A stretch of 64,000 nucleotides of DNA from NCBI RefSeq assembly GCF_053078305.1, contig NZ_CP166879.1. One strand, given 5' to 3'. Shown here piece after piece: positions 57,001-60,000 of the stretch. Within the stretch, counting starts at the first letter, position 1. Each line of letters opens with the position of its first letter. The position numbers are program-made.

Positions 57001-60000
57001 ACGTATCACCGATGAGATGCTGATGTCGGCAAGTGAAACGCTGGCGCAGTATTCACCATTGGTGCTGAACGGCGAAGGTATGGTACTGCCGGAACTGAAA
57101 GATATTCAGAAAGTCTCCCGCGCAATTGCGTTTGCGGTTGGCAAAATGGCGCAGCAGCAAGGCGTGGCGGTGAAAACCTCTGCCGAAGCCCTGCAACAGG
57201 CCATTGACGATAATTTCTGGCAAGCCGAATACCGCGACTACCGCCGTACCTCCATCTAAGCCTGCGCCCGGTAGTGAAGGCTACCGGGCAATTTCCCTCT
57301 CCCTTTTTCAGATCTCATCCATACTGGGTAGTGGCGAATAAATCTCATTTGCCTCACCTGCTATGCAGAACATCATCCGAAAAGGAGGAACTATGAAGGC
57401 TGCAGTTGTTACGAAGGATCATCATGTTGACGTTACGGATAAAACACTGCGCTCACTGAAACATGGCGAAGCCCTGCTGAAAATGGAGTGTTGTGGTGTA
57501 TGTCATACCGATCTTCATGTTAAGAATGGCGATTTTGGTGACAAAACCGGCGTAATTCTGGGCCATGAAGGGATTGGTGTGGTGGCAGAAGTGGGTCCAG
57601 GTGTCACCTCATTAAAACCAGGCGATCGTGCCAGCGTGGCGTGGTTCTACGAAGGATGCGGTCATTGCGAATACTGTAACAGTGGTAACGAAACGCTCTG
57701 CCGTTCAGTTAAAAATGCCGGATACAGCGTTGATGGCGGGATGGCGGAAGAGTGCATCGTGGTCGCCGATTACGCGGTAAAAGTGCCAGATGGTCTGGAC
57801 TCGGCGGCGGCCAGCAGCATTACCTGTGCGGGGGTCACCACCTACAAAGCCGTTAAGCTGTCAAAAATTCGTCCCGGGCAGTGGATTGCTATCTACGGTC
57901 TTGGCGGTCTGGGTAACCTCGCCCTGCAATACGCGAAGAATGTCTTTAACGCGAAAGTGATCGCCATTGATGTCAATGATGAGCAGTTAAAACTGGCAAC
58001 CGAAATGGGTGCAGATTTAGCGATTAACTCACGCACCGAAGACGCCGCCAAAATTGTGCAGGAGAAAACCGGTGGCGCTCACGCTGCGGTGGTAACAGCA
58101 GTAGCTAAAGCTGCGTTTAACTCGGCAGTTGATGCAGTCCGTGCAGGTGGTCGTGTTGTGGCTGTCGGTCTGCCGCCGGAGTCTATGAGCCTGGATATCC
58201 CACGTCTTGTGCTGGATGGCATTGAAGTGGTCGGTTCGCTGGTCGGCACGCGCCAGGATCTAACTGAAGCCTTCCAGTTTGCGGCCGAAGGCAAAGTGGT
58301 GCCGAAAGTCGCCCTGCGTCCGTTAGCGGACATCAACACCATCTTTACCGAGATGGAAGAAGGCAAAATCCGTGGCCGTATGGTGATTGATTTCCGCCGC
58401 TAAGAGGCCTTTGCTGCGACTGCCAGTCCTGGTGTCGCAGCATCGCACACTCTCCAACATGAAATGGCTAAATGGATTATTGTTGCGTAGGAAGGAACAA
58501 TAATGATAGTGTTCCCAGTGAAGGAACACTACTGAGAGTAAAGACACTAATGAAAATGGCCAATCATCCCCGCCCGGGGGACATTATTCAGGAATCACTG
58601 GACGAACTTAATGTCAGCCTGCGCGAGTTTGCCAGAGCAATGGAAATTGCGCCCTCAACGGCAAGCCGATTGCTGACCGGAAAAGCAGCTTTGACGCCTG
58701 AAATGGCAATTAAACTTTCCGTGGTGATCGGCAGTTCGCCGCAAATGTGGCTGAATCTGCAAAACGCCTGGAGTCTGGCAGAGGCTGAAAAAACGGTGGA
58801 TGTGTCGCGATTACGCCGTCTGGTTACGCAATAAAAAATGGCACCTTATAAAGCGCCATTTGAAACTGATGACAAATGCAACATTGCCTGATGCGCTACG
58901 CTTATCAGGCCTACACGTTCACTGCAATCTATTGTATTTGAAGGGTTTTCATGCCGGATAAGGCATTCACGACGCATCCGGGATGAACAAAGCCCACGTT
59001 GTCTACAATATGAAAATGGCGCCTTTTACAGCGCCATTTTCAGCTTAAAGTTCAATAGAGATTATATCCCTTCTTCACTCTCTTTTTTCGCTTCTGCCTT
59101 CTCGATTTCACGATACCAGCGCGGATGGTGTTTCTTCGCCCAGCGACGGCTCACCTTCCCTTCGATCATCCCTTTAATCGATCCTTTCACCCAGAATGCC
59201 ATATACATATGGATCAGGATGGCGTGGATCAGGATGATACCCGCAGCCGCGTGGATCAGCAGGCTGTAGCGAACAACCTGCATCGGGAAGTACTGCGCAA
59301 AGTACGGACGCCAGATAATCACCCCGGTCACCAGCAGCACGAAAATCATGCTCATGATCGACCAGAACATCATCTTTTGCCCGGCGTTGTACTTACCGAC
59401 ATCCGCCACTTTGTGCTCATTGCCTTTTAATACTTCGACAATGTTCAACAGCCACGGAATATCTTTCTTATCCGGGATGTTGTGATGCACAAAACGCACA
59501 AACATAAACATCAGTGCGACGAAAATCGCAATGCCGAAGAACGGGTGCAAAATGCGTCCCATCTGCGGCGTACCGAAGGTTTGCGTCAGCCATTGCAGCG
59601 TCGGGAAGAAGAACGAAATCCCGGACAGCGCCACCAGGAAGAAGCAAATCACCACGGTCCAGTGACAGGCGCGATCAATAAATTTGGTGCGCACAATCAT
59701 TTTCGACTTACTCATGATGATCCTCCTCGTCATCGTCCACTTCCTTATTCGGGCCAATACCGATGTAATGGAAAATCAACCCTGCAAAAGTGGCAATAAA
59801 GCCAGCCGCTGCCAGCGGTTTCAACGCGCCTTTCCACAGGCTTACCGAGGTGTCGATCTTCGGATCTTTCGGCAGACCGTGATACAGCTCCGGCTGATCG
59901 GCGTGATGCAGCACGTACATAACGTGCGTACCACCGACCCCTTCCGGGTTGTAGACGCCAGCATGTTCGTAACCACGCGCTTTCAGTTTCGCCACGCGCT

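Follow-up and report, generated by a model that had tools for sequence, protein, structure and literature searches.

What is a HigA-like antitoxin gene doing by itself between adhP and fdnI, and what became of the HigB toxin gene directly downstream of which it would be expected? In the window, as we call the whole 64,000-nucleotide stretch analysed here, the sequence reads from the adhP stop codon TAA (58401-58403) through a 146-bp spacer (58404-58549) to the yddM ATG at 58550. We consider it very likely that yddM represents the higA half of an Rts1-type higB-higA module on the chromosome, that higB has been deleted from this module, that the promoter and operators were kept, and that YddM represses its own gene. 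The features on which the argument draws are the following.

58412-58442, plus strand: hairpin 3' of adhP, TGCTGCGAC-N13-GTCGCAGCA, common to toxin-less and toxin-plus alleles
58442-58479, plus strand: allele-specific upstream segment, standing in for a toxin-plus segment of ~85 nt and weakly alignable to other alleles
58481-58499, no strand: predicted operator O1, imperfect dyad TGTTGC-GTAGGAA-GGAACA
58494-58515, no strand: GGAACA-N10-TGTTCC palindrome, made of the O1 right arm and the O2 left arm
58504-58512, plus strand: putative extended -10, TGA-TAGTGT, proposed from conservation and analogy
58510-58528, no strand: predicted operator O2, perfect dyad TGTTCC-CAGTGAA-GGAACA
58529-58549, plus strand: leader with the higB deletion scar; 21 nt from O2 to the yddM ATG
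58550-58834, plus strand: yddM = higA, 94 codons and stop, HigA-family antitoxin and HTH repressor
58836-58861, no strand: terminator-like hairpin just 3' of yddM, common to the convergent fdnI

The description of YddM as a 94-aa Xre/HigA-like HTH protein in the initial annotation is borne out by its matches to TIGR02607, the ‘HigA family addiction module antitoxin’ model (E = 4.5e-27; 93.7 bits, above the curated cutoff of 47.7 bits; residues 3-81 of 94), and to Pfam HTH_3 (7.6e-10). It is further borne out by identity to a HigA structure: YddM is 100% identical over 94 aa to the ‘antitoxin HigA’ of E. coli CFT073 in PDB 2ICP/2ICT, described in the literature as YddM from that strain (PMC3968373), and through these solved chains (2ICP_A/2ICT) it has the all-helical Xre HTH dimer of the HigA fold. 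Its alignment to P. vulgaris HigA is gapless over residues 7-87 (1.3e-18). The latter contacts DNA through Ser23, Thr34, Ala36, Thr37, Ser39, Arg40 and Lys45 (PMC12266136); in the gapless alignment, YddM retains five of these seven (Ser23, Thr37, Ser39, Arg40, Lys45) and has Ala at position 34 and Ser at position 36. In K-12, YddM is among 10 candidates confirmed by ChIP-exo as binding DNA in vivo, and several of its sites served to derive a motif (PMC6237786).

In the window, yddM does not lie directly downstream of a HigB (PF05015) gene. A HigB tblastn of the whole 64-kb window at E<=1e-3 returned neither a toxin ORF nor a HigB-like remnant, and the search for toxin remnants upstream of yddM suggested by the initial annotation likewise found none. 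Permissive tblastn of three HigB sequences against the yddM flanks gave chance-level matches only, and HigB similarity is absent from every reading frame of 58300-58600 and 58800-59100. With no toxin-sized ORF or HigB remnant beside it, and no intact toxin ORF adjacent in the window and flanks searched, yddM is indeed an orphan, and the window holds only the antitoxin of a type II toxin-antitoxin module. The earlier idea of a degraded module that retained its antitoxin holds for the retention, but the toxin is wholly gone rather than degraded; at most, a CAC-TAA that corresponds to the final His codon and stop of higB might be left. The spacer does contain the 14-codon (ATG 58460) and 10-codon (ATG 58503) ORFs listed before, but not only these: an in-frame ATG at 58472, which would lengthen yddM to 120 aa, a 38-aa TTG-start ORF (58387-58503, plus strand) and minus-strand ORFs of 74 aa and 28 aa near yddM had been overlooked. 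A Pfam search of the 74-aa and 38-aa ORFs and of two small ORFs 3' of yddM gave no match. An Rfam scan of 58300-59100 found nothing upstream of yddM and, downstream, only sub-threshold REP-derived sRNA-like matches; a second copy of the yddM/fdnI terminator-like hairpin lies at ~59022-59049, past a REP-like insert. The segment 58455-58475 (CATGAAATGGCTAAAT) was considered as a duplicated yddM 5' end on a by-eye alignment only, and the idea was dropped because the multi-species alignment sets it against the normal region upstream of O1.

The toxin is found at orthologous loci. The comparison of the locus across genomes that had been called for recovered intact HigB genes upstream of yddM orthologues, nearly all of which have a toxin gene ahead of them. 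Among complete E. coli genomes, yddM is present in 5412/5426, and about 1330/5426 have a gene for a 92-aa HigB between adhP and yddM (higB DNA occurs in 1331, one of which has a 47-nt remnant only); strains 300444 and NRG857c, for instance, carry an annotated RelE/ParE toxin there. The 92-aa protein matches Pfam PF05015 (1.4e-17) and the Proteus vulgaris HigB structure 4MCT_B (8e-32), and in toxin-plus alleles its gene overlaps the yddM ATG by 1 nt. Full-length HigB was seen upstream of a yddM orthologue in 24 cases among the Enterobacterales loci fetched: the ORF is directly upstream in E. albertii, Escherichia sp. and 11 of 13 Citrobacter loci, as well as in Cedecea, Buttiauxella, Enterobacter, Pluralibacter, Chimaeribacter and Erwinia. 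Downstream of the orthologue, fdnI is shared by Escherichia, Citrobacter, Pluralibacter and Enterobacter. The presence of HigB at this locus in E. coli, E. albertii, many Citrobacter and other Enterobacterales indicates that the toxin is ancestral. Hence, YddM is a HigA by descent and an orphan by context, the toxin being gone here and present at orthologous loci.

The converse history, in which YddM was ancestrally a stand-alone Xre-type regulator and the toxin was inserted upstream later in a minority of strains, would agree with the ~75% of E. coli genomes that are toxin-less and with the very divergent, and therefore old-looking, toxin-less promoter haplotype. We nevertheless regard it as extremely improbable: the same 1-nt overlap and four-half-site promoter recur in E. 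albertii, Citrobacter and at least 8 further genera; a HigB-like ORF precedes even the distant YddM homologues (30-40% identity) at 9 of 10 loci; in intact alleles the operators sit upstream of higB, not of yddM; and other lineages hold partial toxin remnants of independent origin. That yddM is an orphan HigA is already known from the literature and from RefSeq product names. Bustamante and Vidal 2020 (PMC7232551) described the orphan status, and we confirmed that their locus is the yddM locus.

If yddM descends from a higB-higA operon, does it still have the operon's control region? The initial annotation had pointed to a GGAACA-N10-TGTTCC palindrome with a direct repeat as an autoregulatory operator. 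Both sequences are present, GGAACA at 58494-58499 being followed after 10 nt by TGTTCC at 58510-58515, and GAAGGAACA recurring at 58491-58499 and 58520-58528, 29 bp apart; the N10 palindrome as the operator unit does not hold up, and two N7 dyads take its place. O1 and O2 are each 19 bp, and the palindrome is formed by their inner arms. By itself, the palindrome is only weakly significant (up to one mismatch, 0.14 expected per 64-kb window; at least one match in 12 of 100 shuffles), and the case for its being real rests on half-site conservation instead. The four half-sites are 23-24/24 identical between the window and the E. coli toxin-plus, E. albertii and Citrobacter alleles, the other promoter positions being 40-50% identical. 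In the multi-species alignment, the invariant columns 58481-58487 and 58494-58499 coincide with the O1 half-sites. O1 overlaps a -35-like TTGCGT (58483-58488), and the spacer of the palindrome holds a conserved TG (58504-58505) and the start of a -10-like hexamer. T58504, G58505 and T58507 are invariant in the -10 region, and distant homologues carry TGC-TATACT or TGC-TATGAT at the extended -10 site. O2 would span the 3' end of the -10 and the expected transcription start, and from O2 to the higB start there are 10-13 nt in nearly all toxin-plus loci. At the level of sequence, then, yddM has what HigA genes have over their own -35 and -10, two inverted-repeat operators, here predicted. A consensus sigma-70 scan of 58350-59100 gave no promoter, and the yddM promoter is therefore proposed from conservation and analogy; genomic SELEX with RpoD holoenzyme lists a yddM promoter between adhP and yddM (PMC3946193). 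A minus-strand ‘terminator’ call at 58532-58506 was rejected as being the O2 palindrome.

A rival view is that the palindrome at 58494-58515, whose 6+6 match is perfect and which most loci conserve, serves one YddM dimer and that the outer half-sites are incidental. We think this quite unlikely. Its spacer varies between 10 nt and the 9 nt seen in loci L011, L014, L024 and L026, whereas the two-dyad layout is present, with both N7 spacings invariant, in 29/29 related loci. The O1 arms covary (GTTGCG..CGCAAC) in L022, L024 and L026, so that the right arm GCAACA pairs with GTTGC and breaks the N10 palindrome. In strain N1131, a natural 29-nt deletion has removed the N10 palindrome but left one TGTTGC-N7-GGAACG dyad. 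Moreover, the Rts1-type promoter shares the two-dyad layout, and there the inverted repeats of a single operator take one HigA dimer (PMC12266136).

As judged from its sequence, the window, like K-12, carries a deletion allele. Relative to a toxin-plus allele, the 279-nt toxin gene is missing, as are about 47 nt of the spacer upstream of it. The hairpin after adhP, which toxin-less and toxin-plus alleles share, marks the left limit of their homology, the block 58404-58441 aligning to the toxin-plus allele L001. In the strongly diverged leader, the junction may lie at a microhomology, ATGAA/ATGAA, that the second ATG of the toxin shares with the yddM ATG, as one alignment has it, or the leader may have kept CACT(A/G)ATG from the higB 3' end, as in a local alignment. 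The O157:H7 TR01 allele was rejected as an intermediate, as it is a singleton among the 5426 genomes. Between the window and E. coli toxin-plus alleles, the half-sites are 24/24 identical and the rest of the promoter region is 46% identical, while the yddM gene differs by 0-9 nt in the same toxin-less/toxin-plus comparisons. The non-operator promoter of E. coli toxin-plus and Citrobacter alleles is 55-66% identical, i.e., closer than that of toxin-less and toxin-plus E. coli. One recent clean deletion fails to explain such a diverged promoter beside a near-identical yddM.

Could the orphan be a functionless relic heading for loss, kept because the deletion is recent? The toxin decays in several ways in E. 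coli (complete loss of the gene, a 1-nt frameshift in 545 genomes, a 9-nt in-frame deletion), which suggests that the module is dispensable. We find a functionless relic very unlikely, however, given the near-universal presence of yddM, the in vivo DNA binding in K-12 and the perfectly kept operator half-sites amid flanking bases that have turned over. The YddM protein is identical in toxin-less strains, toxin-plus strains and E. albertii, and five toxin-less yddM alleles differ by 0-6 nt, all synonymous, with 0 amino-acid changes; the unchanged protein and synonymous-only differences argue that the orphan is maintained, most likely as an autorepressor.

The preferred history and mechanism would run as follows. 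In the Escherichia/Citrobacter lineage, a higB-higA module was probably inserted ancestrally between adhP and fdnI. The whole higB ORF with its 47 or so nt of upstream spacer would then have been lost here, in K-12 and in roughly three quarters of sequenced E. coli, leaving the hig promoter with both operators to drive the antitoxin gene directly. YddM dimers would bind the predicted sites O1 and O2, and Arg40, like that of P. vulgaris HigA, would contact each hexamer at its inner C/G. Bound YddM would occlude the extended -10 promoter, whereby yddM would repress itself. As no toxin is left either to be neutralised or to modulate repression, the orphan may act as a simple negative autoregulator.

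Its role might also extend in trans, as anti-addiction or immunity against HigB arriving by plasmid or recombination, or as a co-opted regulator. From its sequence, YddM should still be able to neutralise the cognate HigB, since it is identical to the antitoxin of toxin-plus strains. HigB homologues occur on 454 plasmids, 89 of them Escherichia, but all the genuine plasmid homologues are <60% identical to the chromosomal HigB of the yddM locus. The ChIP-exo motif was built from several sites, but the 64-kb window has no further exact O1/O2-type dyad. Anti-addiction functions have been proposed for orphan antitoxins in reviews (PMC7354431). On balance, we view a role in trans as a possibility to be held tentatively.

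In the toxin-less haplotype, half-sites and protein are frozen, and the remaining promoter and leader are remodelled more than between genera. Within E. coli, this haplotype is found alongside higB alleles that are intact or frameshifted. That it is an old, selectively maintained haplotype rather than a passive leftover is a somewhat unlikely reading; if true, it would fit an anti-addiction immunity allele against HigB re-acquisition or a repressor re-tuned for new targets. For a long-standing y-gene, the autorepressor reading offers a clean annotation, yddM = higA, orphan antitoxin and autorepressor. The locus also provides, within one species, a natural decay series of a toxin-antitoxin module, whose states (intact, frameshifted, in-frame deleted, fully deleted) all retain the antitoxin, and it could be a handy natural system in which to study the persistence of orphan antitoxins.

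Several known systems invite comparison. The HigBA of E. coli K-12 (ygjN-ygjM) shares the name and the toxin-first order but lies at a different locus, fadH-rlmG; unlike CFT073 HigA/YddM, its HigA carries a C-terminal HTH (PMC6987408), and the pair is complete in K-12 and orphaned in CFT073 and NRG857c (PMC7232551). YbaQ of K-12 (PDB 2EBY) is a HigA-like HTH protein matching YddM at 5.6e-09, from a different locus and distant in sequence. At a second locus, parE-1/higA-1, HS and K-12 carry the higA gene only (PMC7232551), and its 342-nt gene length (113 aa) suggests that this orphan is ybaQ.

A further such system is HigB-HigA of the Proteus vulgaris plasmid Rts1, the founding host-inhibition-of-growth module, which is plasmid-borne, whereas the yddM module is chromosomal and here toxin-less. 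Rts1 is toxin-first like the intact yddM alleles, and Rts1-type HigA resembles YddM in its N-terminal HTH, its length of about 95-104 aa and the conserved Arg40, though recognition-helix residues 34, 36 and 38 differ between YddM and P. vulgaris HigA. HigA dimers bind an O1 and an O2 that overlap the -35 and the -10; the sole base-specific contact is made by Arg40 (PMC12266136). The Rts1-type dyads, TATTGC-N7-GTAATA and TATTAC-N7-GTAATA, lie 30 bp apart and flank a TATAGT -10; those of yddM lie 29 bp apart with the same 19-bp hexamer-N7-hexamer geometry, and O2 has the position relative to the -10 of the second Rts1-type dyad. The half-sites are TGTTSC/GGAACA at yddM versus TATTRC/GTAATA in Rts1, and 11-12 nt separate the end of the second dyad from the toxin start in both the intact E. 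coli alleles and Rts1, the distance to higB in the Rts1-type promoter being 12 nt. The published contact numbering maps ambiguously onto the two Rts1 dyads: one register, in which L050 position 577 is +1, accommodates C-30, G-24, G-8 and C-2, and G+7 and the symmetry fit the second dyad instead.

The last system to be compared is the chromosomal HigB-HigA of E. coli CFT073/NRG857c (‘ParE-2/HigA-2’, TA20 of Bustamante and Vidal 2020), to which the HigA structure 2ICP/2ICT belongs. It differs in having the toxin gene and in a non-operator promoter about 46% identical to that of the window, but it occupies the same locus, adhP - toxin - yddM - fdnI, with an identical antitoxin protein and the same four operator half-sites.

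The yddM gene follows maeA and adhP on the + strand and is in turn followed by the convergent fdnI and fdnH:

58401-58403, + strand: adhP stop codon
58550-58834, + strand: yddM, 94 codons

YddM scores 93.7 bits against the NCBIfam model TIGR02607 'HigA family addiction module antitoxin' (curated cutoff 47.7), is also matched by Pfam HTH_3 and, across its full 94 residues, has 100% identity to the PDB chains 2ICP/2ICT, which are deposited as 'antitoxin HigA' and called 'YddM from E. coli CFT073' in a review (PMC3968373). The TIGR02607 score and this identity bear out the initial annotation of a HigA-type antitoxin. 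The next-best solved relatives are the HigA chains of Proteus vulgaris plasmid Rts1 (1.3e-18, gapless over residues 7-87), whose structures show HigA by itself, together with HigB and bound to operator DNA.

The adhP-yddM spacer, read from the sequence coordinates, spans 146 bp and holds both the 14- and 10-codon ORFs and the direct repeat (GAAGGAACA in two copies, 29 bp apart) initially described. The ORF listing adds a 38-aa TTG ORF (+ strand) and 74-aa and 28-aa ORFs (minus strand) around yddM; Pfam gave no match for the 74-aa and 38-aa ORFs or for two further small ORFs beyond the end of yddM. Translation from an in-frame ATG at 58472 would lengthen YddM to 120 aa and run through both operators; we reject this ATG as the ancestral start because higB lies there in intact alleles and the protein that was crystallised begins MKMANH. 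The mechanical adhP ORF from ATG 57363 specifies 346 aa; in related strains, RefSeq adhP has 336 aa with an MKAAVV start (57393).

Searching a GTDB set with one genome for each species with YddM yielded 41 loci. In 24 Enterobacterales loci, tblastn recovered a full-length HigB ORF that stops just short of the yddM ortholog: E. albertii, two further Escherichia, 11 of 13 Citrobacter loci, and representatives of Cedecea, Buttiauxella, Enterobacter, Pluralibacter, an Enterobacteriaceae bacterium, Chimaeribacter and Erwinia. fdnI lies downstream of the ortholog in Escherichia, Citrobacter, Pluralibacter and Enterobacter, and adhP upstream in several. A HigB-like ORF also occurs upstream in nine of ten distant homologs (30-40% identity). 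From the presence of HigB in these loci and distant homologs we conclude that the higB-yddM pair is ancestral at this chromosomal site and that the toxin-less state is derived. Loss of the toxin with retention of the antitoxin has recurred independently in several lineages: Citrobacter sp. FP75 keeps 26 N-terminal and 12 C-terminal higB codons, the gene is frameshifted in Citrobacter portucalensis and Xenorhabdus lircayensis, and only C-terminal remnants persist in X. khoisanae and Chimaeribacter californicus. In the window, tblastn found no protein-level HigB remnant in any frame, the yddM flanks included. The pair in relatives upholds the proposed module with a retained antitoxin, and the toxin gene here is lost outright rather than degraded. 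DNA homology to the toxin-plus E. coli allele (with higB between adhP and yddM) is confined to three blocks: 58404-58441, a post-adhP hairpin; 58480-58528, the operators; and 58545 onward, where CAC-TAA lines up with the last two codons of higB, His and stop (CAC-TGA). The junction of the deletion falls somewhere within 58529-58549. The hairpin loop (58426-58433) reads CAGTCCTGGT in the window and strain A16, against CATGTTCGG in the remaining E. coli alleles of the comparison.

Megablast of 58250-58900 found the adhP-yddM locus in 5412 of 5426 complete E. coli genomes, a subset of which have a 'RelE/ParE family toxin' annotated between the two genes. In strain 300444 this gene is 279 nt long, its end overlapping the yddM ATG by 1 nt. 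It encodes a 92-aa protein that hits Pfam HigB-like_toxin (1.4e-17) and can be aligned over its full length with the solved P. vulgaris HigB endoribonuclease (8e-32). The intact toxin sought upstream of yddM in relatives is therefore present, both in toxin-plus E. coli and in other Enterobacterales. higB DNA occurs in 1331 of the 5426 genomes, always as a single copy; leaving aside strain TR01, which has only the last 47 nt of it, about 1330 genomes (24.5%) are carriers and about 75% are toxin-less like the window and K-12. A frameshifting 1-nt deletion near codon 33 is present, by exact 60-mer match, in 545 carrier genomes, and a 9-nt in-frame deletion in one further strain. Since the 278-nt copies among the matches listed include ST131 strains such as EC958, the heavily sequenced pandemic ST131 clone has a dead toxin beside an intact antitoxin gene (higB at 1840-2117 of the ST131-type locus L002). 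O157:H7 TR01 has a mosaic third allele (1402-1546 of its locus L045, corresponding to 58404-58549) with a toxin-plus-type upstream segment, a K-12-type O1 only and the last ~47-50 nt of higB (VNGDAYILDYEDYH*) fused in front of yddM. It occurs just once in the 5426 genomes and reflects either a rearrangement peculiar to this strain or an error of assembly.

Comparing the ~110 nt that precede the module's first gene across 29 loci, we found in every one TGTT(G/C)C - N7 - G(G/C/A)AACA - N9 or N10 - (T/C)G(T/C)TCC - N7 - GGAAC(A/G). The N7 spacings are constant in all 29, the one between the dyads measures 9 nt in four, and in three the right arm of the first dyad is GCAACA, which is perfectly symmetrical with the left arm GTTGC and breaks the N10 palindrome. 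An 11-sequence alignment has invariant blocks at 58481-58487, 58494-58499, 58511-58515 and 58523-58527, besides T58501, T58504, G58505, T58507 and G58520-A58521. Together, the constant spacings, the GCAACA changes and the invariant half-site columns predict that the functional operator units are two 19-bp dyads, O1 (58481-58499) and O2 (58510-58528). The palindrome first proposed as the operator, GGAACA (58494-58499)-N10-TGTTCC (58510-58515), does exist, but as the junction of the inner arms of O1 and O2.

This arrangement resembles that of an Rts1-type promoter from an IncT plasmid that encodes a HigB with 100% identity to that of P. vulgaris: TATTGC-N7-GTAATA ... TATAGT ... TATTAC-N7-GTAATA, followed after 12 nt by the higB ATG. 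Both share the hexamer-N7-hexamer geometry, with dyads 30 bp apart in the Rts1 type and 29 bp here, and the second dyad stands 12 nt from the toxin start there and 11-12 nt in E. coli and most Citrobacter alleles; this distance is 10-13 nt in nearly all toxin-plus loci. In the Rts1 system, the inverted repeats of a single operator are bound by one HigA dimer, O1/O2 overlap the -35 and -10, and Arg40 makes the sole base-specific contact, to a half-site G (PMC12266136). YddM keeps five of the seven contact residues (Arg40, Ser23, Thr37, Ser39 and Lys45), and the inner hexamer C/G (C58515 and G58523 in O2) would by position be the counterpart of the Arg40-contacted base pair. The Rts1-type -10 abuts the second dyad. 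A consensus scan found no sigma-70 promoter in the yddM region; we infer an extended -10, TGA-TAGTGT (58504-58512), as distant homologs have TGC-TATACT or TGC-TATGAT at that spot. An RpoD-holoenzyme SELEX site between adhP and yddM, assigned to yddM (PMC3946193), is consistent with it. In strain N1131, a 29-nt deletion of exactly one O1/O2 repeat unit (in the region 1655-1770 of its locus L047) leaves one merged TGTTGC-N7-GGAACG dyad in place of the two operators and takes away the putative -10; an IS200/IS605 tnpA is inserted between its yddM and fdnI (2163-2621).

Twelve Escherichia yddM alleles differ by 0-24 nt, but the protein is altered in just two of them, by a single residue in each; among the five toxin-less alleles there are 0-6 nucleotide differences, and the protein stays the same. 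The gene is nucleotide-identical in toxin-less A16 and toxin-plus 300444, and every E. coli record examined shares WP_000781370.1. ChIP-exo confirmed in vivo DNA binding by K-12 YddM and yielded a motif (PMC6237786). The near-absence of amino-acid change and this binding indicate that purifying selection maintains the orphan, the simplest role being that of an HTH protein that represses itself. YddM may also provide immunity against addiction or act on other genes. Genuine plasmid-borne HigB homologs are all <60% identical, and the 64-kb window holds no other exact O1/O2-type dyad.

Between the window and the toxin-plus allele, 24 of 24 half-site positions are identical, as against 46% of the remaining promoter and leader positions (window 58442-58549 versus 1690-1839 of the toxin-plus locus L001); at such non-operator positions, E. 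coli toxin-plus and Citrobacter alleles are closer to each other, with 55-66% identity. Despite this divergence, yddM differs by 0-9 nt between toxin-less and toxin-plus E. coli alleles. The promoter might represent an old haplotype with the gene homogenised by recombination, faster turnover once the toxin was lost, or an imported segment, each being possible.

Downstream of yddM (58836-59049), two near-identical hairpins, AAAATGGCRCC...GCGCCATTTT (~58835-58861 and ~59022-59049), bracket a REP-like insert containing GCCTGATGCGCTACGCTTATCAGGCCTAC and related sequence, with sub-threshold Rfam matches to the REP-derived sRNAs ES036 and naRNA4. The length of this segment varies among E. coli, which accounts for the 94% coverage matches in the locus search. 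Strain A16 (otter, Mexico) is 99.5% identical to the window over 651 nt; only three of 5414 records reach at least 99% identity, and the window seems to derive from an uncommon lineage of E. coli.

The orphan-antitoxin claim is correct and already known: RefSeq names the product 'HigA family addiction module antitoxin', and Bustamante and Vidal (2020) described the NRG857c pair at 1,526,229-1,526,791 as TA20 (ParE-2/HigA-2), with the antitoxin alone in HS and K-12 (PMC7232551). We found the order fdnI - yddM - toxin - adhP at these coordinates. Hence, the original observation is confirmed, its interpretation supported and its operator model corrected. To this we add the population frequencies of the locus states, their ancestral polarity and the repeated independent toxin losses, the two-dyad operator with its match to the Rts1-type promoter, and the frozen half-sites and coding sequence against a strongly remodelled promoter background. 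At a second locus, parE-1/higA-1, K-12 and HS likewise retain higA alone (PMC7232551), which from its 342-nt length we infer to be ybaQ; conversely, higBA (fadH-rlmG) is complete in K-12 and orphaned in CFT073 and NRG857c (PMC7232551). With these two cases added to yddM, HigA seems to have been orphaned repeatedly in E. coli.
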